A stretch of 64,000 nucleotides of DNA from contig CDROCS010001406.1 of the NCBI GenBank assembly GCA_977020255.1, positions 62,001 to 126,000 of the forward strand, written 5' to 3'. Shown here piece by piece: positions 4,803-26,554 of this stretch (position 1 is its first letter; each line of letters opens with the position of its first letter). Source of the stretch: Obrimoposthia wandeli (taxonomy: Eukaryota). A model generated the notes under the pieces. The model searched no databases. It had not been told where the DNA came from and worked only from the letters and a program-made list of their open reading frames with translations. The translations under genes were made by a program, and so were the position numbers.

Positions 4803-5677
4803 TGTTAATAAAGTTATTGTTAAAATTAATCAAATTATTAAGTTGAGTTGATATAATTTATCTTCTGGAAATATATATTAAATTGTATAATTTTCTTGTG
4901 TTTCAATTATTCCAATAGTAATATAACTAATCTTCTTCTGGAAATATATATTAAATTGTATAATTTCAAAAATTCCAATAAGTATATATTTTTATTACAA
5001 TTGTTTTACACTATGAACTTGCTGCTTTAAGTCTGCAGTTTATATATCAAAAAGACACACACAGAGAAGGCAGAATGCATTTACGGAAAATCAGTCGATA
5101 CTGCACCATCTCTATTATCACATTTATGCAGACAGATTTTTCGCACACTATCAATGATTATTATTTGTCCCGTTCTCCATTCTTATCAGCCGAGTTATCC
5201 TTATTGAATCCGGACTGCGAACAACTGCAAATTTCCTGATCACCGTTTCTGCTTCATCTCTACAAGGACACTTTTAAATTTCCATCTAACACTAAGGAGA
5301 GACAGAAAAGGAGAAAACGGCCGCGACATCAGCAACAAGGGAGAGGGAGACAAACATGTAGGTTGATGTGCAGGAGAGAGACGCCAAAAGTCAATTTGGG
5401 GAGAAATCGTCTTGTCAGAAAGGGAACCAACAACACTGGCTGCAGGGGAAAAGGTCACAGCCGCGATGGAGCATGGACTGGCTGAGGACTTAGTACTGGT
5501 TGATCTGCGACCATGAGAGATGGCAGTAGCATGCGAGAGGAGATTGACCACAATATTTACTGGTCCCGCATACACACCCACACACTGCACCTGCGCAAAC
5601 AACATCCGTCTCTACGCCAGCCCTGTGTCTGAGTGCAAACCCAAAATTGCCGCTGTTAAATGCCAAAGTGCATCGCA
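4803..5677 (-). repeat. 3' LTR (LTR-A)
   Basis: On the + strand it runs TGTTAATAAA...AATGCCAAAGTGCATCGCA (TG..CA), with the same terminal motifs as 17777-18786. It is preceded on the - strand by the purine-rich GATTGAGGGAATT (PPT-like), has a TATA-like GATATATAAA, and contains a ~73 bp internal duplication (4861/4934). Confidence 0.65.
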
Positions 5678-5984
5678 AATTCCCTCAATCGCCCCTTAAT
5701 TAAGGGAACAATCAATCTCCCCAAAACAACCCTAACACAATAATCAAACGCTTTCTCATTCCCAACAATCCTATGGGGCAAACAAAGTCAGACCTCTGAC
5801 ATTTTTTAAAACAAGAATAAAAATAATGTCCCGTTTAGCATATAATTGTCCAAAGTGACTTTTACAAAAATAAATTGTTCGAGTCTGTTAATGTAAAGAT
5901 AAAAAATAAAACATTGATTTATACTTTGCATCCACAAGCAATAATACATTTAGTGAATTATGCATAGTAAAATATCTTACTAAT

Positions 5985-7112
5985 CTAAAGGTTGTCCTCA
6001 GAATCAGAGGAGCAAATGTCTACGACTTCAGGCAGGTTATCATTGGCAATGCAGGGGAGAGAGACTGTCAGTCCACATTCTTCTATTAGCTCTTGCTCTT
6101 TATGGAGGAAAATTTTTCGGGTCCATTGTGTGTATATGAGGCTAGAGTGGGTATTCTTTTGTATTTCTTTATTGAAATACCACGAGACCATTCGAGCAAG
6201 TCCAGCTTGTTCTTTACGGTTCATCTCTAATTGAATAGTTCGTGTTGCTCCTAGATCCACCATGTGCGAAAAATCGTTTTTCTGCAGTCCTAAAACTTTG
6301 AGATCGTTGGTTATTCCCGTTCCTACGAAAATGTTGTCTCTTAGCAAGGATTGGACGCGTTCTAACAGTTCGACAGAATCAGGTTGGTTTCTTAACTTTC
6401 GTTCGTTAAGACCCGTTATTCTTGTCACATAATTCCTGATTCTGTCTCTGCTATTGCATTTTGTATCCAAAACGATTTGTCCGCTTCTATTCATTATAGT
6501 AATGCTGGCTAGGGTGGGTTGTTTATTCATTTTTACTACCATTTCACAATCGACAAAAAATATTTGAGGATTGTTGGGGATGATATTCAAATGGCAGACT
6601 TGAATGGGTTTAGGTTGCACATTTTGCTCTATGAATAATATGTTATTTCCACCCGACAAACGAATCATCAAATCGGGAGTTATTTGATGTCTCATCAACC
6701 GGTAAGAGTGGTTTTGCAGGAGAAGGACAGAGAAATGTTTGCTTTTCTTGTGTTTTAAAAATCCACGGCCTTTTGCTACGTGAATCTCAATGTCCGTGCA
6801 TGTAGGTAAGAATTTCATCAACTCAAACAGTCTTTGTTCTGTTGGCTTTTTGCTATTTTTGTTGAGAATTATGCTTTGTCTTGGGGTGTCTCTTAACTTG
6901 ATGCTATTTGGAAGCTGGGTCTGATTGTCAAAAATCTTTATTCGTTAATGGTTATGGAAATACCTTGTTCCAAACTGCCTTATTTTTCCATAAAGGAACT
7001 TAGCCATTTTTGCCATTTCTGGACGTTGTTCTGCTAACTGGACTGACTTCTCTCTCTTACCCTGCGGCACAACCTGCCAGTTCAAATGAGGATTTGTGCT
7101 TGTGGGTTCCAT
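5985..7112 (-). pseudogene. DEDDh 3'-5' exonuclease (REX4/ISG20-like) carried inside the retroelement
   Basis: ORFs 6945-7178 and 5985-6821 are in the same frame, joined by 41 open codons and one TAA (6945-6947). Motifs: ExoI FVDCEMV, TRITGL, ExoII VGTGITNDLKVL, ExoIII THSSLIY (expected Asp is Tyr). The ATG at 7112 directly follows a polypyrimidine tract and CAG. Confidence 0.8.
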
Positions 7113-7546
7113 CTGTAGGGTATACAGATATAGTAAAAAAAAATGTTGATTTTTACATGCAAATATAAAAATTGTCAAATGTCTATCAAATGAAATGTTC
7201 CTGTCAGTTTATTTGTCTCTTTTTGTTAATCAAAAGTCTGTAAATCATTTTAGTCTTTTATGTAACAAGTTCAATCAAACAGGTATATAAATAAGATATA
7301 ATTTTTCATTCTTTAATACATATTCTTATTACTGGTGTTTTCAATATCAATATATACAATGTACATACTTATATAAATATATTCATTTCTATTTATTCTT
7401 AATTTTATTATCACCACTTCAACTAAAGCTAATGAATATTAATACCCATTCATAAACAAATTTCGTCTCCAAAAATATGCCATAAGCCCAAACTCATTCT
7501 CAATTTTCTTTTCTTTTATATTTTAATTTACTCACTGGGGATTTTA

Positions 7547-7855
7547 CTAATTTTCACACCCGGAATCATCACTTTCTCCCGGTTGAAATCCCATCAAACG
7601 ATTAATTACTGATCTCAATGATACAAGAGAGTTTAATGCTTCTCTGAGTCGTCGTACTAATAATTCCTGATTTGTTTGGCTATGTTATAATCTTTCAATT
7701 GCAACGTCAAAAGCATTATTCATTCGCTCACATTCTATTTCCTTGTCTTTCAAATGCGATCTCAGATTTATATTTTCTATCAATAATTTATTTTCCCATT
7801 TCTTCTGTCTCTTATATCTTCTTCTATTATTTTGTACTATTTTCGAATTTCTCAT
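7547..7855 (-). pseudogene. Small basic/coiled-coil accessory ORF (102 codons, one internal stop)
   Basis: Manual translation: MRNSKIVQNNRRRYKRQKKWENKLLIEN...AIERL*HSQTNQELLVRRLREALNSLVSLRSVINRLMGFQPGESDDSGCEN*. The frame stays open across the single TAA at 7685-7687. Confidence 0.45.
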
Positions 7856-8469
7856 TTTCTAAAATGTTAATAAGTCTTAAGCTCATATTTTACTATTTTC
7901 TATTTAAACTAAACACATACGCACTTTCCTTTATCTACATTAAAATTACTTTATTTTATGATTAGTTTTTATTTTAGTATTTCAATTCATGTATTTCTTT
8001 TGACAATTTTATAAAGATTTTTTTCTATTTTCTGTTTATTGTTCTCAATTATTGTATTCATTGATATGTTAGATGAATTTGAAGAGCCAGGTATAATGGA
8101 TGTCATAAATGGGCCAGGTGGTTCACAATATTTAGTCCGATAATGTTTTTTGAAAATTGTGTTATTTTTTTACTTTAATAACCTTCCATGTTATTTTTAT
8201 GATTAACGTAAAGATTTCAATCATTATGATTTTTATAAAAATTTCCATGTTATTTATATTTTTTGAGTATTTTTGTTTACTAAAGTGTATTTTTAGACTT
8301 TCATTGAATGATTTATAGGGTATTGTTTTTGTTGTTTTTAATTGTTTGTTAATTGTTTTATTTTCTGTGATATTACTTTGATTTGTAATTTCATAAGTCT
8401 TTGTTGTGAATGTTGTAGTATGTGGTATTTGTTTTATGGTTGTTTCTTTGATATATTTCCTAATTGTAA

Positions 8470-9260
8470 TTACTGACCATTGGCCACAAAAAATCGTATT
8501 TTATTTTTATTTCCAAAAATCCTTAAGTTTGTTAGATCTTTACAAGTCTCAAATTGTTGTCCCCATTGTCTATACATTATTGGTTTGTTAGTAATTACAC
8601 ATTCTCTATTATCCAAAATTATTTTTTCTGGATATCTTATATTTTTTATAGTGATATTTGTTCTGATTTGTGTTTTTTCTAATTGTTTTTCGGCGTCTTT
8701 CCAAAAATGATCATTATGTCCTCTATATCTAATTCTAATGAGGGTTTTATCAAAATTATCTATTTTAAGTTGAAATTCCCAATTTATCATGATTTGATGT
8801 TTTGTTATATATTTTGCTGACGTTTTTAATATTGAAGCTAAGTATAAGTGAGTTTCTATAATTCTTTCATAGAGTGTTATATTTTTTAAATTCGACTTAA
8901 CTCTTATTTTGTATTGTGTTTCTGTTCTTAAAAATGGTATTATATAATTTTTTGATTCGATTTTGTAAATATTTATTATTTGATTTTTTTCAGATTGTAT
9001 TATTTGAATTCTTCCTAATTTTTTTTTGTAAAGAGTGATATTTTCAACTTTATTGATGTGATTTCAGGTATTATTGTAATAAGTCCAAAATTTTTTATGA
9101 GATGTGTTGATGAGTCGTATCTATTTATTTCGTCTTTTACTATTAATTGATTTTCATTCAGGTTTATAGCGTTTACTTTTATTAGGTTACTTTTTACTGC
9201 AACATATATTACTAATAACATCATTATTTTACATATTTCTTTTATTGATATTTTTATTGT
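8470..9260 (-). pseudogene. Degenerate ORF at the env position, starting with a signal-peptide-like segment fused to the integrase C-terminus
   Basis: The pol ORF continues past the GPY/F motif into [25 protein letters not shown]..., stops next to an A-run at ~9020, and protein-like reading resumes in 8470-8790 and its upstream frame. Confidence 0.45.
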
Positions 9261-12200
9261 ATTTCTGGTTTGATGACTCAAAATAGTTTTGTTTTGTTTT
9301 TGTGAGTTTTTTATTGTCAACATTTGTAGAACTGTATTATCATTAGTTGATCTTAAGTTATATTTGTGACTTTTTACTTTTGTATTCTCCTCAGGTATTT
9401 CTCGACATCTGTTTATATGTGCTCTTATTTCTTTTGATTTTGATTCATTATCTAGTTTAGCTGTTATGTTGGTTCCGTTGGTACTAATGACTGTATATGG
9501 TCCTTTGTATGGTTTTGATAATTTGTGAGACAATCCTACATTAATTTGTGGATTGTGAATCATCACTTTACTTCCACTTTTTATATTTGATGGCTTAGTT
9601 CTTCTATCATAATATTCTTTGTAATTTTCTTGTATGTTTTTTACAAATAATTTAGCTTTTTCAAATGCTAGTTTTATTCTTTCTCTAATTTCTATTTTGT
9701 ATTCAGGTATTTCTAGGTACTGTGTAGTAGGTTGTAGTAATGTTAGATCAATAGGCATTTGAGGATCTCTGAGGAACATAAGGTAAAAAGGTGTTTCTCC
9801 AGTAGATGCATGTACTGATGTTCTATATGCAAAAAGGCATGGAGGTATATGTAAATCCCAATCTATTTGGTTGTTGTTTGTATATGATACCATCATATAT
9901 TCGAGGGTTCTATAAAATCTTTCTACTAATCCATCGGTTTGATGGTGATATGGTGTTGTATTAATCTTTTTTATTTGAAAAATTTCAGCTATTGACGCTA
10001 ATACATTATTTATAAATTCAGGACCTTTGTCGGTTAATAATTTTCGGGGTGCACCGAAAGTAAAAATAATTTTTTCGACTAAAACCTTCGCGATGATTTC
10101 AGCCTTATGATCATGTGTTGGAAAAGCCTCTGGCCATCTTGTAAAATAATCAGAAAATACTATTATATATCGATTTCCTCGGGGTGTTTCAGGTAATGGT
10201 CCCATTACATCCATGGCAACAGTTTCCATGGGGGCTGATGGATAAGGTATTGGCTTTAAAGGTATTTTTGTGGTACGTAAAGTATTTTTCCGTTTAAGAC
10301 ATATTTCACATGTTTTACACCAATTTTTTACATCTTCTTTCATGTCAATCCAATAGTATTTTAAATTTAATCGTGAATGTGTCTTTTTTGATGATAAATG
10401 TCCTCCTAGGGCTCCATTATGATATTGAAGAAGTAATTGACACTGAATTTCTTTAGGAATAACTAGTGAATATAGATTTTTGTCATTTAAATAATATAAT
10501 ATTTCATTACTATATTTGTATCGTGATTCGTGAATTTTTAAATGTTTTCTTAATTTTTCATCTGTTGGTACTTCGTTTGTGCTAATGTATTTAGTTATTT
10601 GCTGAATTTCATTATCTTTGCTTTGAAGTTTAGTTATTACTTTTTCATCATATTTAGCTTGAATTATTGTAAAAAGATTTAATTCGATGTCATTTGCAGT
10701 TATTTCGTTTATTTCTTCTCTTATTCGTGATAGACAATCTGCATTAGCGTTAGATTTTCCTTTTCTATATTTTATTTCAATATCATATTTTTGTAAAATC
10801 AATGCCCATCTCATTAATCTAGATGTTGTATCCTTATGATTTAAAAGCCATTGTAATGGTCTTTGATCTGTGTAAACATAAACCTTTCGACCTAATAAGT
10901 AATGTTTAAAATGTTCCATTGCGAAACAAATAGCTAGGCATTCTCTTTCTATAGTTGAATAATTTATTTCATGTTTTTTAAGACCTCTGCTCGCATATGC
11001 TATCACATGATCTTTTTCGTTATTTTCCTGTTGTCCTAAAACTGCTCCTAACGCATAACCACTGGCGTCAGTCATAACTAAAAATGAGTTATTAAAATTA
11101 GGATATCTAAGTATAGGTTTTTCGATTAGTTTTTGTTTTAAATATTCATAAGATTCTTGTTGTTCTTTTTCCCATTCAAATTTTTCATCTTTTTTAATAA
11201 GTTTATTTAATGGTATTGCTATTTGTGCGAAATTTCTAATAAATCTTCGATAATATCCTGCAAGCCCTAAAAATTCCTGTATATTTTTTACTGTTTTTGG
11301 GATTGGAAAATTTTTAATCTTTTCTACATTACTCTCGTCTGGTTGTATTCCTTTTGCTGATACAGCATGTCCTAAGTAATTTACTTTATCTTTTATCCAT
11401 TCACATTTCTTTGGTTTTAGTTTTAATCCTGCTACCTGTAATCTTAAGAATACGTTTTCTAAATCTTTTAAATGTTCTTCAAAATTTTTTGAAAAAATAA
11501 GAATGTCATCGATATATACCATTACGTGATCTGCATCCATTAAAATATGGCTCATACATCTCTGAAATGTTGCTGGAGCTCCGGTTAATCCAAATGGTAA
11601 GACATTGAATTCATACAATCCTTCTCCTGTTGAGAAAGCTGTTTTATATTTATCTGACTCCTCAATTTCTATTTGCCAGTATCCACTCTGTAAATCCAAA
11701 GTTGTAAATACTTGTGCATTTTTTAGTTTGTCTAATATTTCATCAATTCTTGGCAGTGGATAAGTATCTTTGTGAGTGACTTCGTTTAGTTTTCTGTAAT
11801 CTACGCAAAATCTCAAAGAACCATCTTTCTTTTTACTAAAACAACAGGTGATGTCCATGCAGAAAAACTTCTTCTAACAATTTCATTTTCTAACATTCCT
11901 TTTATTTGTCTTTGAGCCTCATCTCTGTAGGCATATGGAATTCGGTAGGGTCGTTGTTTTATTGCTGTGTTTGTTGTTAACGGAAGATTATGTTTTATCA
12001 AATTTGTTCGACCTAAATCGTATTCATTTTTAGCAAATATTACATCATATTTTTCTGTTAAAGTTTTAAGTTTTGATTTTTCATAATCATTTAATTTAAT
12101 ATCGTTAAAATTTATCGTAGATTTATCTTCTATTTTTTCATTATCTATTAATTCAATATTTTCAATAACACTTATTTTTCCAAGACGTACTCCTTCCTTT

Positions 12201-12860
12201 AGATGAATTTCATTAATGTCTGCATTTAGGATTCTGATTGGTATTGTGTTGTTTTTTATTTTACAAATTATATTTGGCAAAACGTAGTTCAAGGTTTCTT
12301 GTTGATATTTATAAGGTTCAAATAATACATCTTTTTCTGTGATTATGTTAGTTTCTAGTTGTAACATTGTTTCTGTTCTTGGTTGGAGAATGATATCTCC
12401 TTTTATTTCTAACTCGTATTCATCTTTGGCGTTAGGTCTGTAATGTCTTTTATTTGATTTTTTTCAAAATCAAAGTGGAAATTATTTCCTAATCTTCTTA
12501 ATGTATCTATTCCTATGATCATTTGGCAAGGACAATTTTTCATTATTCTTGTAGGTATTTTTATGAATTTATTTCCTATTTTAAAAAAGACAGTCTAATT
12601 TTCCTATTATATCTACGGGTTGACCGTTTGCTGCTGTGACTTGACTATTTTCCTTAAGAAGAAGTAATTTTTGTTGTGTTTTTAAGAAAGATTCGTCTAA
12701 AACTGTTACGCTTGATCCTGTGTCAATTAAAGCTTTAAGTTTATATTCGTTAATTTCTACCTTTACATATGGTCGTTTATCGTTATCTTTTGATTTATTG
12801 TATATATTGTTGGTGCAGTTGATTTTTGTATAGTTGTTTTATCTATATATTTTTCTAAAT
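9015..12860 (-). pseudogene. pol: Gypsy pol (aspartic protease, RT, RNase H, integrase), frameshifted
   Basis: PR ALIDTGSS (DTG at 12716-12724); [39 protein letters not shown]; RNase [26 protein letters not shown]; IN H-H-C-C, MDVMGP, TDKGPEF, GLVER; GPY. Frameshifts near 12590 and 11830. Confidence 0.97.
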
Positions 12861-14841
12861 CAGGATATTGTGAAGATTCCGTTTTTTCTGTTTCTTTTGG
12901 TATTTGTAATTTTTTGTATATTTGTTTCTCGCATTTCATTTGATAATGTATTTACTATGTTTTGATGATGATTAAAAATAAGGAATTTTGCCAAAAATGG
13001 AAAACATCCTAAGATTAATTTCCATGTTAATCCTCCAACTTTATAAATATAATATGTTGATAAAATTTGACTTAGAAGAATCTTAAAGCAAATTAGTAGA
13101 GCATATATTCCAACTAATCCAGAAAATGCTTGTCCAAAAATTAAAATGTTACCCCATATTTTTGACATGGTGTTTTTAGTGGCTTTTATAAAATGATTTG
13201 GAGAAAGTAATAAGTCATAATCGGGACGGCTAATTCCGTCAGGTACTGATCTTTCTATGATTTGTGTTAAAATTCTGGATCTTATTTGTGGAAATAAAAT
13301 TTCTTTTCTTAACTTATCTATATCTTCCTGTATATAAATTCCTTTTGTGTTTAATTCGTTATCTGATTGTATATTGATGTCGTTGCTGAGAGTGGTTAAT
13401 TGTAATTTTTGTGGTTCTGCGACAATATCTCTTCTTGGAAGTGAAATCCAAATATCTTTTGAAATTTGATAATGAGGTGCCATTATGTTTGAGCAGTTTA
13501 TTTCTTTTATGCTAAAAGTGTTAAAAAGTATGATTCTAGTGATTGGTTTTACAAATAATGAATTATTTTTGTAAGAAATTGGTAATTCTTTTGTACATTT
13601 TTGATGATTTCTTATGTTAACTATTACTTTTTTACATTGATAAGTGTAAAACACTTCTCCCATTACTCTTCCAAAAGTACCGTCAGCTAATGGTAATAAT
13701 GGTGTTATTAATTCTGGGTTAGTAGCAATAATTGCCAATTTCGTTTTTAATATCTCCTGATTTAATTTACAATCATTCATTATGGTTTCTCTATATATTG
13801 CTTCTATTGTCATTAGTCCTTTGTGATAAAAATAATCTAATTTATTGTTAAAATAATCATATTTTTAATATCAAATTTAGTTGGTGTCGTTATGTATTTT
13901 TTCATTACTCAAATATATTCCTTTATAATTAGTTGTATAAACAGAGTGTCCACATCGGGATTCCTCTTTCTTTTTAATAAATCGCATTCCTGAACCTTGT
14001 TCAATAGACATTAATATAGTTGGAGTTGGTGTTTTACGTATTTTTCTAGTTCTATATATTTTATGTATGTCCTTTGGAACCTGTTGATCTAGTTCCGGAT
14101 CATCTCTAAATCTTTTTCCTTGAATTATTTGAAAAGTTTCTGATTTTAAATGTATTAATTTACATTGATCGATTTTTACTTTGTAGTAAAGTATTGAAGA
14201 ACCCGTGTTACAGTGACCCATGTTTGCTTCACAAAATGGCATTGTTACCATTGTGTTTGTAGAGGGGTCGAATGTTGCTTTGAAAGTTCTTAGTTCGACT
14301 TCAAAATTTTTAATAACTACCAAACCACTTTGCTTAACTCCCATTACTACATAAGTTCCTGTTGTACATTCTCCATCAGATTTAATCGTACCTACTACTG
14401 ATATCATTTGTTGAATTATTTTATTTTTCGCCGCTCGGACTTTAATTTCTCTATCTATTCTCAATTCTCCTGTTGCGAAAGCATCTTTACAATTTAAAGC
14501 GTCAACTATTATTGGTGTTTTTCCTAATGCTGGTTTTACTATTGAATTGTGACTATGTTGTCCACAATATGTTATAAATGTCTCTACATGTACTCTACAT
14601 TCAAAAACTTCTGCATATATGAAATCTGTTTCCTGATATACTTGATACAACTTAGTATTTTGGATTTTTACCTCATTTGGGTCAGGTCTGCACATTGCTG
14701 TAAATCCATTAAAGAATATTTATTTTGAATTTTATATTTTGAACAATCATATGCTTCTAAAGCATTAATTGGTTTTATCATGTTCATAATTAGACATATT
14801 ATTAATATTATCTGAATAATTTTCCATAATTTTTTCATCAT
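12860..14841 (-). pseudogene. Chuvirus-like (gB-related) envelope glycoprotein, ~660 codons, frameshifted
   Basis: Manual translation from ATG 14841: signal peptide MMKKLWKIIQIILIICLIMNMIKPINA then LEAYDC...SLMDLQQC. A frameshift leads into 13877-14695 (C.V.V...ITYCGQHSHNS, NCKDAFATG) and on into 12860-13813 (YFNNKLDY, C.LNQEILK, GEVFYTYQC, TM FSGLVGIYALL). These motifs match my recollection of Chuviridae glycoproteins. Confidence 0.85.
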
Positions 14842-14914
14842 TTTATTAAGATTATTTGTATTCTTAAAAATTTTAGTTTTTTAATTTTTATTGTTTTACG
14901 ATTTTTCTTGTGTT

Positions 14915-16564
14915 TTACTTTCTTTCTTGTGTTTGAGTAGTTTGGTTTGTTTTTGTGATTGTATATTTATTTTTTTGTAATGTCAAACAACCATCTCTAA
15001 ACATGTCTCCAAATTCGGATTGTAAGTTTGTTCTATCTGTTTGTGGTTCATTGTTATGGCATTGTTGGTGTATTTCTCTGTAGCGATTATCCATTTCTTT
15101 AAGTCGTAATTTTAACAATGCTAATTCGTCTGTGTTTGGAGTTGTTTCTGTATTTTCTATAGTGTGAATAGGGTTTCTTGGGGTATATTGTTGATCTTGA
15201 GTACTGAATTGTACTGTTTTTTGAACTTGTGGTTGTTGTTTTATTGTTGTGTTTCCAAATTGATTCATCATTGTGTTTAATTTTCCACAGTCATCGGTGT
15301 TGTGATTTTTCATATTACAAATCTTACAAAATTTTGTATTATTATTAAAATATCTATTTTGATTATTGTCATAATTATTTGGTTTATTGAAGTTATTATT
15401 CCTTGGTAGTGTATTATTACTCTGTCTATTTATTAATTTTCTACAAGTTTCAATTGTGTGATTGTCTTTTTTGCAAAATCTGCAAAATTTTATGTTACTT
15501 AATTTTCGACAATTTTCTATTGTATGAGTTTTGGAGTCCACAATTTGTGCATTTTTGAAAAAATCTTTGTGTAAATTGTGAGTTTGCAAAATTTTTGTTT
15601 GTCTGGTTTCTATAAAATTATTTCTTGGTGGTCTAAATTGTTGAGGATTTTGAAAATTATATTGAGTGTCTTGGTTAAAATTCCTAGATTGGTTGTAGTT
15701 TGGTGGCGTTTGTGGTCGTTCTATTTTTTCAAAAGATAAAGCTGAAACTTCGGTTTGCTGTATCATATTCAGTCTTGCTTCTACTAGTTGAGCTTTTCCT
15801 ATAGCCTGTTGAAAGTTTTCTACTTCTAGTAAGGCAGGGTGATCTCTAATTTTGTTATTTAATCCATGTAAAAATTGATGTAAAAGTAATCGCTCTCTTT
15901 GTGCTTCTTCTATTTCGGGAAAAGATTTTAATGCTAGTCGTCGTAATTCGACTGCGAATATATTTGTGGGTTCTCCTACATGTTGCTCTCGTTGTCTAAA
16001 TTGATTTAAGTAGTTCTGGTCGGACTGTGCTCCTAAAACCATATTTTGGAAATGCTGGACTAAGTGTTCCCATGTGTCTTTTTGTAGATTTGTTAGTCCT
16101 CTATAAATGGTTAGGGCAGTGCCTTTTAGGTATGCTGGAAAAACTCTAAGTTTTTCTTGGTCTGTCCATTCGAATGCTTGAGCAAAAGAATCATATATAT
16201 TCAAGAATTCTGGTAAAGATGTTTTATCGCCATTAAATGCGTCTAGTGGTATGTTTAATTTATGATTTGCCATTTGAGGTACTTCGTTTATTTGTTCGTT
16301 ATTTATTTCTATGTTAGGTGGTACTGGTTCTGCCACTGTTTCCGATGTTTCTGACGAGTTGTCCGAGTCAGATGTTTGTGGTAAAGATAAACTTTCTGTA
16401 TCTGAATTTGATGTTAGGTTTTGGTTTTCAGAGTCGGTTGAAATTAAGCGATCCGTGTGTTGGTGGACTAACGGAGTTTCAGGGAAAAATTCGTTATTTG
16501 TTCTAAAATTTATCTGGGATTTAGGTCTCTGTGGTAGTGTTTCACTTGTGTTAGTTCTTACCAA
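14915..16564 (-). CDS. gag: Gypsy gag (capsid domain plus CCHC zinc knuckles)
   Basis: FNGD..FL, W...EKL, YLKGTAL, R.Q..GE....FA..LRRLA, HQFL.GL. Knuckles CRFCKKDNHTIETC and CKICNMKNHNTDDC, plus a third (CTNCGLQN-H-TIENC) visible in an offset frame. Confidence 0.92.
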   Translation of the reverse strand: MVRTNTSETLPQRPKSQINFRTNNEFFPETPLVHQHTDRLISTDSENQNLTSNSDTESLSLPQTSDSDNSSETSETVAEPVPPNIEINNEQINEVPQMANHKLNIPLDAFNGDKTSLPEFLNIYDSFAQAFEWTDQEKLRVFPAYLKGTALTIYRGLTNLQKDTWEHLVQHFQNMVLGAQSDQNYLNQFRQREQHVGEPTNIFAVELRRLALKSFPEIEEAQRERLLLHQFLHGLNNKIRDHPALLEVENFQQAIGKAQLVEARLNMIQQTEVSALSFEKIERPQTPPNYNQSRNFNQDTQYNFQNPQQFRPPRNNFIETRQTKILQTHNLHKDFFKNAQIVDSKTHTIENCRKLSNIKFCRFCKKDNHTIETCRKLINRQSNNTLPRNNNFNKPNNYDNNQNRYFNNNTKFCKICNMKNHNTDDCGKLNTMMNQFGNTTIKQQPQVQKTVQFSTQDQQYTPRNPIHTIENTETTPNTDELALLKLRLKEMDNRYREIHQQCHNNEPQTDRTNLQSEFGDMFRDGCLTLQKNKYTITKTNQTTQTQERK

Positions 16565-17759
16565 TCTAGTCTGAATGCGTCTCCAGTGAAGATTAGCACT
16601 ACGTTTAGATTTTGAAATCTTTGTGTATTGTTCACTATTATCCTGCGTACTGGGTCGAAAATTAATTTATGTGTTTATATATTGTTGTCTAGTTTTGTTG
16701 AAAACGATTAAATAAATGTTATATTTTAAATAAATTAATTTTCAAAAACAGTCAGGAATTATTTCTGCTCTGTGATCAAAATACAGCTCGGCCTTATGAT
16801 AATCGATTACCGTGATTTGAGCTGCACTTTCAACCAAAGTAATAGAAAAATTTCTAACTTATTAATATATTTTTAAGTAAAATCTGTTATCACTATTTTT
16901 ATTTTAAAAACCGATATTGAAAATTTGTAAATTTTAATAAACTATTAATATATTTTAAACAAACACAGGATAATTTTGAATCAAAAACTATTGTCTCCAA
17001 ACTATGAAAATTTGTTAATTTGTTAACCCTAGTGTATTTTATTTCTAACTTGAATTAGTAAAAATATTAAAATAAATTTGTGAAAATCCTAAATCTAAAT
17101 AAAGTAATATGTTTGTATTTTAATTCAAAAATAGTCCTAATATTTTATAACTAAATTTCGAATTTCTTATTTTCACTTCTACAGAAAAATGAATTCAAAT
17201 ATGAATTATGTATTTTTATTATTATTGTTTCTATTTTACAAATGTATATATATTGCTCTAAATTTTTATTTTAATAGATCGAGACAATGTAGTTGGGCTT
17301 AAAATAATAATGAATACTCCTTGCAAAACCTCTGGCGGTATGTACCACAAAGTATTTTTACTTTACTTTAATTATTACAACCAAGAAATTATTCTAAAAA
17401 AAATACAGTATAATTTTATTCTAAAAATACAATATAATTTTTATTAAAAATGAATTAAAACGTATATCTAATATTACAAACTATGAGGGACTTTACTCAA
17501 AACACAGTACCTATCAACAAATGCATCAAAAATATTATAGTACGGGTTTTGAAAATAAATTCTATTTAAAATTCCAAAGAAAATATACTTATGTCTACAA
17601 TATAGTATATTTTTTGTGTTTAACACTAATCCAGAAAATAAAAATAAAATACGAATATATTAAACAAGATATATATCTATAATATTACAAATGTATAAGA
17701 AAAATCAACAATGTTAAAAATAAAATTAAAATAAAACTCAAACAAAATTACCGTGCTCG

Positions 17760-17775
17760 TTCTTCGGGCTCACCA
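17760..17775 (-). promoter_or_regulatory. Primer-binding site
   Basis: The - strand reads ...TTAACA T TGGTGAGCCCGAAGA: TGG one base after the LTR's terminal CA. The priming tRNA was not identified. Confidence 0.75.
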
Positions 17776-17831
17776 ATGTTAATAAACGATATTCCAAGGG
17801 TAAAGACGATATCTTCAAACAAACTGCGAAC

Positions 17832-18220
17832 CAGAATAAATATATTTCTTCAAAAAATATTGTCAATGATTAAATCAATTGGTAGCAAAATCAAATGGAT
17901 ATAATTCTTGTTTCTCCTATTATGACTTTTAGGCAAAGTAATATTTCTTGTTGTAAAATTTTTGAATTCAGAATAAATATATTTCTTCAAAAAATATTGT
18001 CAATGATTAAATCAATTGGTAGCAAAATCAAATGGATATAATTCTTGTTTCTCCTATTATGACTTTTAGGAAAAGTAATATTTCTTGTTGTAAAATTTTT
18101 GAATTCAGAATAAATATATTTCTTCAAAAAATATTGTCAATGATTAAATCAATTGGTAGCAAAATCAAATGGATATAATTCTTGTTTCTCCTATTATGAC
18201 TTTTAGGAAAAGTAATATTT
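17832..18220. repeat. 137-bp tandem repeat, ~2.8 near-identical copies
   Basis: Units starting CAGAATAAATATATTTC at 17832, 17969 and 18106. Confidence 0.95.
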
Positions 18221-18699
18221 TAGTTTCTAAAATTAGAAATATCAGTTAAATCAAAATTTATATGCAAATTCCCAAAACTGTCGTCTTATATCTGGCAGCT
18301 GCACAGATTGACTAGGCTGGAAAAGCAGGCAATTCCCGGCTCTACACACACGTACAGATGTGCAGCCGGGAATTATCGTCACCCGATTTCTGTTTCTGGG
18401 CAGGAAGTAAATGGTGCTTTAAAAATATACACACATACACAGCACAAAGAATAGGTGAGAAGGGAGAGTGAGTGAGCAAGGGATTGTGTGAGCGATTGAG
18501 TGAGTAGTGAGAGTGAATGAGTGAGTTGAGTGATGTGTTAATGTTGAGTGAGTGTGTGTGTGTGAATGGTGCACTTGCGCACACTAACACCACATGTCGA
18601 CGATATTCGTCGGCACATGAAAGGGGAATCTTTTCCCTGGCTTTATTATTGTTATCTCTGGCTTCGCGGAATCCACCGCGAAGTTAGAGATAACACGCC

Positions 18700-18751
18700 A
18701 TCTCCCTGATGAGCCCGGCAGGGCGAAACGGGCTTTTTTCCCGTCGGAGAT
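18700..18751 (+). ncRNA. Type I hammerhead ribozyme (HHR1)
   Basis: ATCTCC-CTGATGA-GCCC[GGCA]GGGC-GAAA-CGGG[CTTTTTT]CCCG-TC^-GGAGAT. It has the full catalytic core and perfect stems I, II and III; predicted cleavage is after GUC at 18745. Confidence 0.93.
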
Positions 18752-19313
18752 TGATCACTCTATTGACTAAAATGCCAAAGTGCACAATTCTAAAAATCGG
18801 AACTTTTCCCTAATTAAGGAAAGTTCCCAATTAACTTTTAATTAATTAATTCTCTTTTTTCTTTTATTTCTTTAAAAATTTTATATTTTTATTTTTCTTT
18901 TTTAAAACAATTATTTAATATATTTTCCCAACACATATATACATGTATAAGAATAAATGTAGTACGTGACTTGTTACTATTGATTACATAAATATGCAAG
19001 TATTTGCAAGATAGATGCAGTACGTGACTGTCTTTGTTAGATATATAAACGAACGTTTAAACATATTTATCATATTATATAATACTTTATTTTATAAGTA
19101 GATAGTTTAATTTAATTTAGATTAATTTAGTTTAAACATATTTATCAAATTATATAATACTTTATTTTATAAGTAGATAATTTAGTTAAAATAAATTATA
19201 TAAGCTTGAACACACACACACACACGATATGTCTTTTGGTGAAGACTGCGTGTTAATACCACCTTTAGATAAAAAGATATATAGTTTTAAAGTTTGTGAC
19301 TAAAAATAGAATA

Positions 19314-19630
19314 TGAGTCATCGATGAGTCATTGATGAGTCATCTTCTTGACCTCACAGTGACCTTAAAGTACATTGTCCTCATGACGTCATGACCTTAA
19401 CTTGACCTTAAATGACCTTGACCTCATGAGGTCATAACCTTGACTTGACCTCATGAGGTCATGACCTCAGCGTGACCTTAACTTGTCCTCATGAGGTCAT
19501 GTCCTCATCGTGACCTTAAGCTATGCTCAAGGGGGGAGGGTATGCTCAAAATGTCTTTGTACTGAGCAGGGGGTGTCATGACCTCTTGAGGTCATGACCT
19601 AGATTTTTTGTCTTCAACCTGACCTTAAAA
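19314..19630. repeat. Dense array of TGACCT/AGGTCA, TGAGTCA and TGACGTCA motifs
   Basis: Three tandem TGAGTCA (19314-19342), one TGACGTCA, and ~17 TGACCT/AGGTCA hexamers, many in the palindromes TGACCTCATGAGGTCA and AGGTCATGACCT. Confidence 0.85.
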
Positions 19631-19763
19631 AAAAAGTCGATCAAATTTCAAAAAATTTCAAAAATTTTCGCGCAAATTTCAAAAAGTTTGACATACATTT
19701 AAAAATATTTTGCGCAAATTTCAAAATTTTGACCTACATTTTTGACTTGTCTTAAGGGGGGCT

Positions 19764-20270
19764 TTGTTCCAGAAGTGCTACATCCACCTACTTACGCAAG
19801 CTTTTAATAAGGATCAAATATTTGGTGATGTAAGATTGCCGAAATTAGTTTTAATTTCATTTCAAAAAGCTGTAAAGTTTCTAGGAAATTATACGACAGA
19901 TGTAACACAATTTGACAATATAAATGTGGGTTCAGTGACACTTTCAATAAATAGGATTATCGTGAAACCTATAAAAACGATTTCGAAGGTAAAGCTTATG
20001 CTCTTGCTTATACGCAATCTATTATTCGAAATTTGGGTCAACTAGGTAAAGATATATACAATGGTATTTCTTTCACTGAGTTTAAAAGCAGTTCTTCACA
20101 TTTTTTTTATCACCAGACTTCGATGTAAACCAATGTCAACTACCAAAAGATGAAAATTTACAACTATAAATTAAATTTTATGCAGCTTTAACATATCTTA
20201 CGACGTGCTTATTTACGGAGTATTTGATTCGGAAATATAAATCAATAAAAAAGAACTGTCATATTATAGA
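19764..20270 (+). pseudogene. Polinton major capsid protein, C-terminal remnant
   Basis: QIFGDVRLPKLVLISF...FLGNY....FDNINV..VTL.IN and, in another frame, AYALAYTQSIIRNLG...NGISFTEF resemble the Polinton capsid C-terminus. It sits next to the protease. Confidence 0.65.
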
Positions 20271-20392
20271 ATGAAGTAAGACATTTTTTCTAAAATTTAT
20301 ATTTATTAATTTTTTTATTTAGTTCAGTACAAATACAATAATCAGCAGAGAAGGTAATGGGTGATAAATTCAATTGAGTTTATCTTATTGAC

Positions 20393-20656
20393 ATGATTTT
20401 GATTTTTCAACCTGGAGGTTACATTATCAATACTCATACTTCGAAATTACCAGGAGAACATTGGATAGCTATTTATGTTAAAATGTGGACAATACATGTA
20501 TTTGATCCACTTGCAACGTATTATAAACACAGGCCTGTTTCAACTGTTCAAAAAGGACGAAGAAGAGTATTTTACAACAAGATACAATACCAGGATACAG
20601 TAACGAGAAACTGTGGATATTTATGTATTATATGGTTATTTTTTCAAAACAATTAA
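20393..20656 (+). pseudogene. Polinton adenain-like (C5) cysteine protease remnant
   Basis: YIINTHTSKLPGEHWIAIY, VFDPL and YNKIQYQD...NCGYLC contain the H/D/Q/C catalytic motifs. Confidence 0.85.
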
Positions 20657-22056
20657 TGTGTTATTATAATTAAAATATTTTATTTTGAATTGTTTTTAAC
20701 ACCCTAAAATATATAAATAAAGTAAAATGACAAATAATAAAATACATAAGACTCTTTTTTACATCAACAAAATATCACAAATAAGGAAACCTGTCAGCAA
20801 TGATAAGGCCCAACCCAAAAAAAGGTATCAAAATAACAAAAGTTAGAGTCAAAGTGTCATAGATCTCAAAGATTTTAATAAATATAAACAAATTAAATCA
20901 AATTTAAAAAAAACGTTTAAGTTCGAAAGTGTCCATAAGCCAGGCTAACGTTCTTTTCTACTCAAAGCGATTTTGTTGACTTAAGGGAATACAGTTGATG
21001 GGCTCTTGAAATAAATGTAGTTTGCTCAACGCCTTTAATACACCCAATATCATAAACTTTCCGTTAGGCCTCATGTGTAAGATTGTTTCTTCACATACCC
21101 TTTGGTCCCATTGAACATGTATTATTAAATAAATGTAAACTGTAGCATTTACGGCATAATTAAATACAATAATCAAACGAAACCTGACCTTCACTTTCAT
21201 ACCTAAATTCCACGATAATATCCTTTAAATTTAGAGTGTAGAGGATGATAAACGAGATATTTATGGGTATCAAGTAGTTATCCCTGAACATTGCCGGTAA
21301 TAATGGATTATAATTATTTAAAGTTACATTCCTACATTCTAAAATGAAAGAGTCATTGTCAGTAGGTTTTGATCTTACAATTGAATTCGTGGCGATATTT
21401 CGCTAATTCAATATATTGACGATCGAGACAAATACTCTATTTTTCATAATAACATTGCTACCAAGTCATCTGAAATTGTAAAATTACGCTTGAAGTTATA
21501 CATCCTAGTATATGTTATTAAATTGCGCTCATAATTGCAAAACTGTAGACAAATACTTTCCGCAAGTCCTCTACAGTTTTTCCAAAGAGACTTACTTTTT
21601 AACTTGTAAAATTCCCGATCGAATTTTCTAGTAGCAAAATTACGTTTTCTTGGATTCTTCTCATTACAGTCATTAAACACAATGTTTTGATTAAAGTTTA
21701 TAGCGCGATGATTTTGAGTGACCTTTGCTCCTAACTTTAAGTAGAATTGAAGAAGCCGCCTAAGTACTACCTAATTCAACTTGCCTTCATGAGTTAACAA
21801 AACATTTGAATAAGTTATTGTTGCAAAACGATTAATGTGTTATTATAATAAAAAAATTTAAAATATTTTATTTTGAATTGTTTTTAACACCCTAAAATAT
21901 ATAAATAAAGTAAAATGACAAATAATAAAATACATAAGACTCTTTTTTAATATAAATCAACAAAATATCACAAATAAGGAAACCTGTCAGCAATGATAAG
22001 GCCCAACCCAAAAAAAGGTATCAAAATAACAAAAGTTAAAGTCAAAGTGTCATAGA
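20652..22056 (+). repeat. ~215 bp direct repeat pair (20652-20863 and 21831-22056) bracketing the pPolB fragment
   Basis: Both copies read ATTAATGTGTTATTATAAT...AAGGCCCAACCCAAAAAAAGG...GTGTCATAGA, with two small indels. Confidence 0.95.
20900..21830 (-). pseudogene. Protein-primed family B DNA polymerase (Polinton pPolB) C-terminal remnant
   Basis: Manual translation gives LQFYLKLGAKVTQNHRAINFNQ, FDREFYKLKSKSLW (degenerate KL..NSLYGK), NFK..TISDDLVAM, FRYESEG and LCRKCYS, with many stops and frameshifts. Confidence 0.75.
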
Positions 22057-22249
22057 GACAAGTTGCAAGTAATCTAAAATAATAAATATTAATAAAAATT
22101 AAAAAATAAGGTTTTTACCATATTCATCATTTCAAAAATCTAGGATTGAAATGAAAAAAGTGAGAGCTTATATAATAAAAATTATATATTTTATTTTATT
22201 GAATGAAAATATTTTATTTTAATTATTTTATTCCTCCAATTAAATAATT

Positions 22250-23075
22250 GTTTATCTAGGAAAAATTTCTTGAAAATCGTATTCAAATACAATCAAATTG
22301 AATATGGTTAATTTTTGAAATCAAAATATACTTGAAAATCTTCTGTAATAACTGAAATTGTTATAAGGGAACATTTTCTTGAATATGGGTAATTTCTGAA
22401 ATCAAAATGGACTTGAAGATTTTTAATAAAATCAGATTGAATCAGTTGAAAATTTTTATTTTAGCTTCTATCAATGAACCATATATACAGAAAGTAAATC
22501 AATAGTTAATTTGGGCCACTTTGTTGATACTGAGCCATGGCAAACCAATCAAAATGGTTAAAGAGATAGAGCAGGAGGGAGATAGATGCGATGTAAAGAG
22601 GGACATCTTGGCACAGTTTTTCCAGAGATAGATTGTAGTCGTTGGTTGTGTCAGACGATGGTAGGATGGATGGACAGGCACAAATTGTTTGGGAAGGAAT
22701 AGTGGAAGGGGAATTGTGTTGTTGGGCGGACATCTCCACAGATGAGAGGAGAAGACAAAGTTCATCATCTTCGTCTTCTTCAGTAGGGAACAGTCGTTGT
22801 CGCTGCCCACTCGCTAAATCTGAATGAGAGCCATTCTGCATCTGGCTCCTTTGTCACATGAGGAAGGTAGAATGGAGGATTGGAAGGGGAAGAAGCCTGG
22901 GAGAAACTGAATTTGTGCTGGGCGGAAAATTCCAGCGAGATTAAAGGATTTACTTATCTCCGATCTGCCTATATAAAATTCACTTTTTCTGCCGCCTTCC
23001 TGACGAGCCTGGAAAGGCGAAACGGGTTTTTTACCCCGTCGGAAGCTGATAAATCAATTACCTTGAATGCACTTT
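22250..23075 (-). repeat. Solo or degenerate LTR-like island (LTR-C), related in architecture to LTR-A and LTR-B
   Basis: Same polarity as the other two: AT-rich short repeats, then a GA-rich segment, then a hammerhead, then TGCACTTTGG (inverted form of the LTR-terminal CCAAAGTGCA). Boundaries are uncertain. Confidence 0.45.
22996..23045 (+). ncRNA. Type I hammerhead ribozyme (HHR2)
   Basis: CTTC-CTGACGA-GCCT[GGAA]AGGC-GAAA-CGGG[TTTTTTAC]CCCG-TC^-GGAAG. The core is intact, with predicted cleavage after 23040. Stem I is imperfect, as if one C had been lost. Confidence 0.85.
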
Positions 23076-23329
23076 GGATACTCGTTATAAATGTAAATTT
23101 AAATTGACCTAAACATTTTTAATTAATTTTTAAAAAGCATTCAAACTCAACAATAGTAAGAGAGATTTATACACATTTTATATGCGCAATGTTCACCATG
23201 ATCACGATATGGAAAACAAATATTTCTTGAAATTTTTAATATATGATCACGTGAAATATTAAAAATGTTTAATCTTAATTTTTGATTTTTATTGTCATAT
23301 ACTTTTTACTATTTATTTGATCTTTATTT

Positions 23330-24118
23330 GTCCTATTGCTTTTCGGAGTCCTGTAGGGGATTTGATGGCTGCATTTGCCAGATGTGTCGCTGCGTTGATT
23401 GTACCTTTCTTTCTCGACAGACAGACCCTGGAGAAGTGTCCCGTTTCATGCATTTGTTGCACGTTGCATTTTTTGCTGAATATATGTATTTCTTACATGA
23501 TATTCTTTTCCTCAGATGTAACATTTCCCTCGTTTTTGGACTGCTGCTGCCGTAAGAAATTCTGATATTTCTTCTGATTACGGTAGGTTACGGACCGCGT
23601 ATAAATGTGTTGATCTTCTAACATAAGCGTCTGAGTTCTCCATAGCGGCTTCCAAAGATTGAGCTTGGGAGATTGCTTGAGTTAAACTCAGTTCTTCGTT
23701 TTCTAGAAGTCTTTGCCGAGCTGAGTGCAGTTTAATTCCTGATACGAATGCGTCCCGGATATATTCGTATCGGTGTACTTCTGCCGTGGTAGTTTGTGGC
23801 GAGAACTTGTAGAACAGTCACAAAGTCCTCAACGTTTTCCTCTGCTTTCTGGGACCTGTGCATAAGATGATATCTAGAGAATATCTCATTCTTTTTTGCA
23901 ACGAGGCTTCGGTCCAGGATCTCGATAGCTTCGAAGTATGACTTTGCATTTGCGATTCTTGAGTAAATGTTTGAAGATACGTTACTGATGAGGAGAATAA
24001 GTTTTTCTTCGTCCATCGCTTTGGTCCGATTTGTAGTTAGGTTGAGGATCCGTTTCCAATGTTTATACTCGGTCTCAGACTTACCTTTCAGTTTTGGAAA
24101 AGTAAAGAGTTTCTCCAT
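23330..24118 (-). pseudogene. gag: Gag fragment of a second, unrelated Gypsy (Mag-like) element
   Basis: KHWKR...KLILL.SNVS..IY..I.....EAI.IL...KNEIFSRY.L..R.Q..EE.VEDFV..L..LA, then after a frameshift YIRDAFVSGI, a degenerate zinc knuckle and PTGLRKAIGQI (protease start). Confidence 0.8.
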
Positions 24119-24269
24119 CGATGAGTAAAATTTAGTTGAATAAATTGAAGTGAAATTAATAACAAGTTTTATTCAACTAAATTTGAAAAGTGCTAATATC
24201 TAGAAGACTAGATATAACAACAAAGTTCATCACAGAGACTATTGGAAGATTTTGTAATATTTGTAAGTT

Positions 24270-24420
24270 CAATGTTTGTTATTTTTTGTAATTTTGTTTC
24301 TCAAATTTCGTTTGAAAATGAGTTTACTGTATTTTGAAGTCGATTAAAAATAAGAAATTTGGCTAAAAGTTGGAAACATCCTAAGATTAATTTCCATGTT
24401 AAACCACAAACTTGATATTA
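24270..24420 (-). pseudogene. Fragment of the chuvirus-like glycoprotein C-terminus
   Basis: Encodes GLTWKLILGCFQLLAKFLIFN..QN.VN..SNE, versus GLTWKLILGCFPFLAKFLIFN..QN.VN..SNE at ~12930-13045. The DNA similarity is directly visible. Confidence 0.88.
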
Positions 24421-26346
24421 CTAACTTATGTTGATTAAGTAGAGTTTATAAGCTATTCCACTGCATTATTCTGTTTTGTAAACAAAATATTCTCGTAATT
24501 TCATATAGAATCCATAAATTTAATTTCAGAATCTTTTAGAGGAGGCAAAATTTATTTTATGGAAAGCCATAATTACTAATTTTAAACGCATAAAATTTGT
24601 TTATATAAAAAGCCATCTGAGAAAATATCTAGTTGGTGTTTTCTATTCCCCTTTCTATCCTTTTATATTTGGTCCTAAAGAGATCCAGGATTCGTTCTCA
24701 CTATATTATGTGCTATGTTTTCATATAAACTATGAGGCCAGTTAAAAAGAAGCATAATAATTTATTTTACTTCTCAAGATTCTTGGAGCATCAATAACCT
24801 TAACCGAAAATCTATCCATTGAAGTAAAAGTGAAAATTGATTCATTTAATTATTGATTACAAGTTTTCTTTCTTTGAATATAATAATCTACATACTTGAA
24901 CCTCAAAAGTTCTTTTTATATTGGCGTATTTAAGTATTCGTAAACATAATTTATTTAAAACTTTTTATTTACGAATAGTAGTTAAAAATTTGAATATAAA
25001 ATGTTTTTATACTAGAATTTTCTTAGTTAAAATTTAAACTAATTGGAATTGATAAAATTGCGTATAAACAAAAAAAATAAATTATTGAGTCACAATTTTA
25101 AATATGTTACTAGTATACATGGGGAATTTTCACTTACATTAGCAAATTTTGAATACTTATATTAAATTATATATAATTTTTGAATACAATAAGTTTGTAA
25201 AAGAGCATACAAAAGTCAAATATTACTAAATCTTTTGCTAACTTTATTTAACAAATTCATCAGAATTAAATTTATGAGTTTTTGTACATTTATTGAAGCT
25301 CTAATTCCAGAATTCAATTCGATATCCGATTAATTATCTAAAAATATCAAAAAGCCAAATATTTATGATATTTCCATCTGACTACAGATTAGTTAGAAAT
25401 GCTCAATTAACAAAGGATGGAATAATGGATATAAGGAAATCTTACTGTTGAAAAATCAAGCACCTTTACTATTAATAATATCTACCTTGGAAAGCAGGAA
25501 ACGCTTCTGACCAATAAATAATATTACTGTTAATTTTACAATTTTAGAGATCGACTTATTGTGCATAATATCTTGAACATATTCATATTGTTATCACTTA
25601 TTAAAACTCGATAATGCTCACATAGTCTTATGACATTTCATTACTTCTACCATTATCAGTTTCATAAGGGATTAGGAATTTTAAAAATGGGAAGGTGTTA
25701 AATGAAAAAGTCAAAGTTGATTGATTTAAAAATGTATTGGTTCTGTAGAAAACTTTACAAATTTACAGAAAGTCTCAATAAACGGTTTTGGGATAGCATG
25801 TGAGCTCCAAAGCAGCACCGACACACAATCCGCACTCGGGTCGTACCTCAATCAATCATGTTCCTTCACACTCACATACAGCGGGATATACCACACATTT
25901 ATGCATACATTTCATATTTATAAATAGAGATATATCAATATTAATTACAACAAGAATTATCGAGTAACCAAATCGCAAAAGCAAACTGTTTCCAGTCGTC
26001 AGTGATATGTTTGAGGCAACGATCCCGGTGCAGGGAGCGTGATGCTGTCTGCTGCTTCAGGACACACATTCACTCTTTACTGCTGCTTAAGTTGTTTGAT
26101 GTACACATATACAAACTGTTGCTGCTTCGCGAGAGAAAAATAAAAATAAAATGTTAAAAGAAGAAGTAGTAAATAGGACCCCGAGGAAACACACGTCGTG
26201 AAGAGAAGGATGCAAAGAGGGTCGTGTCTGGTACGAGACCCCGACTACAGATTGTTTCTTTTGGCAGTCAGAGTGGCGTAAATGCTGCGTGACGACGCTC
26301 TCCGCACAAGCGAAAATAGGGTGACAGGAAGGGGTGTCGGTGCACC

Positions 26347-26521
26347 TCACCGCCATACAACAGAGGCATCTGATTGGCCAACTGCGGACCCGGAAGAGGT
26401 GGGAAGGGCAACAGCAGCATGTATGTTTCCATTGGGTGAGGGGACAATGCTGCCATAGCGGTAGTTGGGGCCACTCGAGGCGGGGTTCAGAATGCCACCC
26501 CCGCTCTGGTGCAACTGGATG

Positions 26522-26554
<33 letters not shown>

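Follow-up and report, generated by a model that had tools for sequence, protein, structure and literature searches.

The 64-kb window, i.e. the whole stretch of DNA analysed here, carries two hammerhead ribozyme motifs, HHR1 and HHR2, within islands whose flanks do not resemble each other, which raises the question of what kind of element brought them there and why a ribozyme should be kept in such different surroundings. The first-pass annotation had proposed that the ribozyme was selected across different LTR families. Both strands of the window were scanned for CTGANGA...GAAA, giving 11 candidates, and only 2 of them form hammerheads, both on the forward strand, with their cores at 18706 (HHR1) and 23000 (HHR2).

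The flagged hammerhead and its surroundings

The features of HHR2, the flagged copy, and of its island are as follows:
22994..23046, forward strand: HHR2, type I hammerhead motif (sequence, structural parse, alignment and pair counts)
22994-22999 with 23041-23046, forward strand: stem I in the catalytic register, with a mismatch at 22996/23044
23000-23006, forward strand: core (structural parse)
23007-23018, forward strand: stem II with GGAA loop (structural parse)
23019-23021, forward strand: GAA (structural parse)
23022-23039, forward strand: stem III (structural parse)
After C23040, forward strand: predicted cleavage site (structural parse)
22970..22978, forward strand: TATATAAAA, a TATA word private to the HHR2 copy (found in 1 of 85 distinct copies)
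22452..23152, reverse strand: HHR2 LTR, solo or truncated, of an old subfamily (72-90% matches to 40 scored genomic copies)
22047..22258, no strand given: dispersed repeat unrelated to the HHR2 LTR, whose far end it interrupts or replaces (separate match family)

HHR2 is a real type I hammerhead motif. In both HHR1 and HHR2 the CUGANGA/GAAA core and the NUH cleavage triplet are intact, and the features that the first-pass annotation had listed as common to the two copies were borne out, namely the type I topology, the CGGG/CCCG stem III, the U-rich loop 3, the GUC site and a GGNA loop 2 (GGCA in HHR1, GGAA in HHR2); the compensatory change of stem II from GCCC/GGGC to GCCT/AGGC is also present in the sequence. 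Its description of stem I did not hold, as the proposed CTTC/GAAG pairing is the register of the predicted misfold and not the catalytic register, in which 5 of 6 pairs form and the lesion is the 22996/23044 mismatch, with no missing C to restore. Folding prediction places the catalytic fold of HHR2 8.2 kcal/mol above the minimum-energy fold, and in the predicted misfold core residues are paired with the cleavage site; the copy is a decayed relic, predicted not to cut. Neither HHR1 nor HHR2 reached the gathering threshold in an Rfam scan of the window, the best score on 22900-23160 being Hammerhead_3 (E=2.5, 14.4 bits).

The flanks of the two copies are unrelated, as had been judged by eye. 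The sole BLAST match between the islands is 75 nt long (18702-18775 against 22996-23070, 76% identity), and the global identity of the two motifs is 0.75 (shuffled 0.49), while the two 100-nt blocks upstream score 0.44 and 0.49 (shuffled 0.51 and 0.50) and the downstream flank 0.60 (shuffled 0.54).

Across the 1.35-Gb genome the 621-nt HHR2 island yielded 1,933 candidate relatives, 40 of which were scored. All 30 relatives that were fetched have a C(C/T)CAACA terminus ~130-160 nt after the motif, as found at 23152 in the window, 106 nt beyond the 3′ end of HHR2. Seven of the 30 share an internal junction beyond this terminus, which in 4 of the seven loci leads on to an opposite-strand exonuclease ORF, and in the relative L023 a primer-binding site (PBS) and gag are present on the other side of the LTR. 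Given the terminus, the exonuclease ORF and the PBS/gag neighbours of its relatives, the island represents the TG end of an LTR in reverse orientation, and we infer that the TG end at 23152 is the U3 side. Homology to other copies begins at 22452, while the far end of the LTR is probably at ~22260, where another repeat interrupts it. Since neither the internal junction nor a PBS adjoins the window copy and its far end is interrupted, the LTR is solo or truncated. Its TSD candidate, ATAG, found after 23152 and at 22052-22055 before the interrupting repeat, is a 4-mer in AT-rich DNA. The first-pass annotation was right that the HHR2 island is an LTR; the variants, however, belong to one Gypsy lineage.

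HHR1 belongs to an element on the reverse strand of the window:
18700..18751, forward strand: HHR1, intact type I hammerhead motif (the minimum-energy fold is the hammerhead junction)
17777..18933, reverse strand: 5′ LTR (TG...CA) with HHR1 antisense within it (94-100% copies, many paired 12.7-13.4 kb apart)
17764..17775, reverse strand: PBS, 12 nt complementary to the 3′ end of host tRNA-Trp plus CCA (ARAGORN)
5985..16666, reverse strand: coding region, in several broken frames in the window copy (Pfam)
4803..5767, reverse strand: 3′ LTR of the HHR1 element, of a ribozyme-less subfamily (subfamily comparison)

The core of HHR1 starts 228 nt from the LTR end. The coding region encodes a gag-like protein, a Monjiviricetes-type fusion glycoprotein (PF24664; 12860-14719, reverse strand, between gag and pol), RT, RNase H, integrase and a DEDDh exonuclease (PF00929). 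The whole element, at 4803-18933, is a chimeric Gypsy element: its part from the 5′ LTR through gag and the glycoprotein to pol is of the HHR1-subfamily type (96-98%), whereas the exonuclease and the 3′ LTR derive from the ribozyme-less subfamily. The 4-mers flanking it differ by one base.

The rest of the window holds other features. The fragments at 19330-22056, with a protease-like ORF (20378-20656), a polymerase-like ORF (21444-21770) and an internal duplication (20635-20863/21814-22056), presumably resemble a Polinton/Maverick element; Pfam gave no match for their ORFs. A retroelement region at 23263-24172 includes, at 23732-24172 on the reverse strand, what we take to be a gag-like fragment of another retroelement, for which Pfam also gave no match, and a 164-nt piece of a glycoprotein gene (81% to 12903-13064) is found at 24275-24438. 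Host exons on the reverse strand at 26347-26838 and 28014-60318 comprise a polyglutamine ORF and exons that presumably resemble a CCR4/CNOT6-type deadenylase, with a weak Exo_endo_phos lead (Atlas).

A Gypsy lineage with antisense hammerheads in its LTRs

The 27-nt core pattern of the HHR2 type has 2,332 exact matches in the genome versus 0 for the reversed pattern, and a generic hammerhead core pattern has 8,645 matches, some of them overlapping calls at one site, versus 22 for its control. Among the 100 matches to the 27-nt pattern that were listed, 26 form 13 same-strand pairs 12.7-13.9 kb apart. Ten of these 13 pairs, together with 3 HHR1-type elements, one of type C and one ribozyme-less element, made up a set of 15 full elements. 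All 15 are 13.5-15.1 kb long, with TG...CA direct LTRs that are 95.6-100% identical and the PBS TGGTGAGC(C/T)CG, and 14 of them have a 4-bp TSD. A host tRNA-Trp gene array ends in the PBS complement (ARAGORN: tRNA-Trp(cca), C5734).

The full elements encode gag, a Monjiviricetes-type fusion glycoprotein, RT-RNase H-integrase (Pfam order RVT_1, RT_RNaseH, Integrase_H2C2, rve) and a DEDDh exonuclease. The lineage that bears the hammerheads is a protein-coding Ty3/Gypsy LTR retrotransposon. Its glycoprotein (PF24664) lies between the gag-like ORF and RT, and in single copies it shares one open frame with gag (C8) or with pol (C2583 and C151). No protease was detected by Pfam in the ORFs scanned. 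None of the 15 elements has a polypurine tract before the 3′ LTR, where a C-rich sequence in all 15 precedes a purine run of only 4-6 nt followed by T (AGGAT / GGAGGAT); thus, plus-strand priming would be non-canonical or would use a very short tract. No relatives were found in viral contigs, either by pattern or by pol, and the closest pol proteins elsewhere are 53-55% identical.

The host tRNA-Trp genes form a tandem array (G000:C5734:143176-151119) with a 207-bp period and at least 36 matches. At three loci (L128, L130 and L132, in G000:C407, C1006 and C1708) ~35 nt of the tRNA-Trp 3′ half plus CCA stand directly before the LTR, and at L132 this piece stands between an LTR end and an LTR start, resembling a two-LTR junction with a retained copy of the primer tRNA.

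Further motif types that were examined (C, D, E and F) have the same LTR terminus or flank words, while a listed match with different stems (C34f) had no established tie to the Gypsy lineage. No full-length paired elements were found among 7 extended loci of HHR2's own subfamily or among 3 of the divergent type D, which is tied to the lineage through the LTR terminus and the antisense exonuclease ORF (3 of 24 loci). Ribozymes that lie close together (C20, C46 and L029) belong to nested LTRs with different flanks and are not unit repeats. Every subfamily, the ribozyme-less one included, has an AT-rich palindrome 50-100 nt from the TG terminus, between the ribozyme position and the LTR end, for example around TTAATTAA or CAATTTAAATTG.

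The ribozyme lies on the strand opposite to the coding and PBS strand of the element, which the first-pass annotation missed. Each of the 14 full elements with a ribozyme has it antisense to every ORF and to the PBS. For gag, env, pol and exo this holds in all 13 paired elements and in C8; in C2583, one of the 13, a core base of the motif is altered and the motif was found by structural parse. The PBS shares the strand of the ORFs in all 15 full elements. A motif independent of the ribozyme matches 1,277 3′-LTR junctions, and the first 30 examined, which represent only the subfamilies sharing that junction, all carry the hammerhead antisense and none sense (24 with an intact core, 5 with a damaged core and 1 with a stem II deletion). 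The core starts 143-230 nt from the 5′ end of the LTR, with TATA-like words at ~530-910, as parsed in 11 of 15 LTRs with the sense TATA and poly(A) signals roughly located; the position upstream of the sense TATA-like words would place the ribozyme in U3. Because of the antisense polarity, genomic (sense) RNA bears only the reverse complement. No antisense ORF of at least 150 aa was found in three full HHR1-type elements, and no antisense TATA is conserved across the LTR copies compared.

Presence of the ribozyme is near-universal but not obligatory. The ribozyme-less subfamily, with 90 exact motif matches, is ~1% as common as the ribozyme-bearing LTRs, and an Rfam scan of its LTR revealed no other ribozyme. 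As its paired element C350 is young (LTRs 98.9% identical, TSD present), the ribozyme is dispensable; this subfamily moves or moved recently.

Selection on the ribozyme and its putative role

In 18 natural copies picked as subfamily representatives, 98.1% of the alignment cells are paired, and both sides change in 10 of 15 pairs (0 of 500 shuffles reach this level, a test inflated by the relatedness of the sequences; slid controls 28-50%). The covariation backs three helices, with stems II and III closed and stem I open as in type I, and 20 of the 64 columns are invariant, among them all core residues except the free N7 (T/C/A). Across 45 pairs of 10 representatives, mean identity is 0.74 for the motif versus 0.51-0.53 for the upstream flanks (shuffled 0.48-0.50) and 0.62 for the downstream flank (shuffled 0.54). 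The ribozyme strand has 104 G-U versus 15 A-C appositions in 83 copies, a count biased by the relatedness of the copies and by a copy filter that took G-U as paired. With short flanks, 44 of the 83 have a catalytic fold no more than 0.5 kcal/mol above the minimum, and with 30-nt flanks misfolding is predicted for many copies. Most types other than D have GCC ahead of stem I and UGA behind it, which may take part in a loop 1-loop 2 tertiary contact. These alignments support selection on the ribozyme while its flanks diverged.

Thus, the part of the earlier claim that the ribozyme was kept as the flanks diverged stood, but the supposed LTR families are in fact U3 variants within a single recombining Gypsy lineage. 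B-type, C-type and ribozyme-less elements have nearly identical RT, whereas the exonuclease and U3 are deeply split and reshuffled among elements, as expected of old U3 variants within one lineage and not of separate families. The RT and exonuclease trees disagree, which indicates module shuffling.

We propose, with a probability of about 0.5, that intact antisense hammerheads cut reverse-strand transcripts before these enter the element body and so lower the antisense RNA available for dsRNA/piRNA silencing. Antisense RNA could come from divergent LTR promoter activity or from host or piRNA-cluster read-through into the 3′ LTR, and the ribozyme site is the last point that an antisense transcript from the 3′ LTR passes before the internal region. 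A ribozyme in U3, ~400-700 nt upstream of the sense TATA-like word, would cleave such RNA ~110-190 nt before the LTR exit; the downstream product, uncapped with a 5′-OH, and the unadenylated upstream product would then decay, while the genomic sense RNA, with its inert reverse complement, would be spared. Antisense polarity means that the ribozyme could act on antisense RNA only. As cleavage alone does not terminate polymerase II, the effect would fall on the stability of the antisense RNA and not on its synthesis. In yeast, hammerhead-cleaved reporter mRNAs degrade fast, and 5′-OH ends are poor Rat1 substrates (PMC3241649); in a human reporter, transcription ran past hammerheads and the downstream fragment was expressed (PMC2702688). 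Against this antisense-destruction reading, RNA that is cleaved without stopping polymerase II is still made and only destabilised, the young ribozyme-less C350 shows that the motif can be dispensed with, many copies are predicted to misfold with 30-nt flanks, and in a type I ribozyme the upstream product retains the ribozyme body and might just as well be a stable functional RNA. A more tentative extension is that the lineage uses its LTR hammerheads as an RNA-only counter-defence, in which backwards host or piRNA-cluster transcripts would be cut both on entry and on exit, so that the element would spoil the precursor of its own silencing; if true, it would be the first ribozyme-based anti-silencing device in a mobile element.

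The main rival, which we consider rather unlikely, is that self-cleavage makes the 3′ end of a stable antisense LTR RNA, a divergent transcript of the LTR promoter that would regulate the promoter or copy number with the ribozyme (plus a hairpin in some subfamilies) as its protective end. The polarity and the signs of selection suit it as well as antisense destruction, stems II and III remain with the upstream product when a type I ribozyme cuts, and HHR1-type copies, as well as some of types C and D, have a strong hairpin directly 5′ of the motif on the ribozyme strand (z ~-4 to -10); the hairpin is, however, absent in the HHR2 subfamily (z near 0 to -2.5 in most), the upstream sequence is unconserved across subfamilies and so is any antisense TATA. 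It seems improbable that an antisense two-LTR transcript is cut to unit length and circularised as in retrozymes, or that the ribozyme is a hitch-hiking LTR parasite. Two identical ribozymes do flank each element, as in plant retrozymes (PMC4918200), but the excised RNA would be 13-14 kb long, non-coding and, having the wrong polarity, without the PBS, and the close ribozymes of C20, C46 and L029 come from nesting; parasitic hammerheads have been proposed in Penelope-like elements (PMC8557442), yet covariation would not keep a passive passenger unless cleavage benefits the element.

It is still harder to see the block as a DNA enhancer or a sense-RNA structure, with the hammerhead look a relic. 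Helices are strand-symmetric, so that covariation alone leaves the strand undecided, and the block does lie in U3, where enhancers sit; but it is precisely the catalytic core that is invariant, while N7 and all three helices change, and G-U exceeds A-C on the antisense strand. Least credible is the small RNA suggested by the first-pass annotation, driven by a TATA on the ribozyme strand and with loop 3 serving as its Pol III terminator. The TATA word TATATAAAA is indeed at 22970-22978, and U6 loops occur in both window copies. Yet in a set of 85 distinct copies, including 2 chance look-alikes, a TATA word within 60 nt upstream of the motif occurs in the HHR2 copy alone, on the wrong strand for the LTR promoter, and a run of at least 5 T in the stem III/loop 3 segment occurs in only 22 and is absent from the youngest high-copy subfamilies. 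Judged by these copies, neither the TATA word nor the T run is conserved. Termination in loop 3 would moreover drop the cleavage site and destroy the selected structure, and the copy survey largely refutes this reading.

Comparison with known systems

Plant LTR retrozymes resemble the lineage in having a hammerhead per LTR, a PBS and a Ty3/Gypsy link (PMC4918200, PMC7761336), as well as a 4-bp TSD (bioRxiv 10.64898/2026.07.22.740005). They are described as non-coding, with 600-1000 bp between ~350-bp LTRs, type III and tRNA-Met primed, and their ribozyme-bearing circle carries the PBS (PMC4918200, PMC7761336). The Gypsy lineage, in contrast, is animal, protein-coding and 13.5-15.1 kb long, with type I motifs, tRNA-Trp and an antisense ribozyme; it shows none of the marks of a plant retrozyme, which is non-coding and ~1-1.7 kb long and has its type III ribozyme on the same strand as the PBS.

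Animal type I hammerheads are known from tandem non-LTR retrozymes and Penelope-like elements (bioRxiv 10.64898/2026.07.22.740005, PMC6765202). With the lineage, non-LTR retrozymes, Penelope-like elements and Terminon share type I, an animal genome, thousands of copies and a retroelement terminal repeat (PMC7229834, PMC4209133, PMC8557442). As described, however, the hammerheads of these elements lie in 170-400 nt tandem repeats or in pseudo-LTRs of RT/GIY-YIG elements, often as minimal motifs, unlike the true TG..CA LTRs, integrase-type TSDs and full 5-7 bp stem III of the lineage, in which neither short tandem units nor pseudo-LTRs devoid of PBS and integrase TSD were seen.

The layout of the lineage is that of the planarian Burro Gypsy, which also has a mononegavirus-like fusion glycoprotein between gag and pol (PMC6431247). 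The likeness is one of layout; the lineage is half the size of Burro (13.5-15.1 kb versus >30 kb), shows none of its extra domains and has a 3′ exonuclease ORF; the Burro section of PMC6431247 makes no mention of a ribozyme in the LTRs.

Prokaryotic-type hammerheads were also compared: 17 metagenome contigs (L187-L203) carry type I motifs that fit the same degenerate core/stem II pattern, with Shine-Dalgarno-like words following several of them. A common origin with these contigs is unsupported, as 0 of the 17 has a gag, env, pol or exo match.

Among titles and abstracts of the open-access literature, we found no report of an LTR hammerhead, in either orientation, in an autonomous LTR retrotransposon. 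The arrangement seen here, a type I hammerhead kept by selection and placed antisense within the LTRs of such a Gypsy element, is real, abundant and apparently undescribed. The retroelement ribozymes of R2, L1Tc, Penelope-like elements and retrozymes are described as processing the RNA of their own transposition (PMC6765202). The ribozyme of this lineage cannot touch the genomic RNA, yet it is kept by covariation across diverged U3 variants, which points to a job on antisense RNA. Its copies amount to thousands of potential RNA-cleavage sites across host introns and UTRs, and the young subfamilies with and without the ribozyme, nearly alike in RT and housed in one genome, offer a natural experiment. 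That autonomous LTR elements can carry LTR hammerheads supplies a missing link for the origin of retrozymes.
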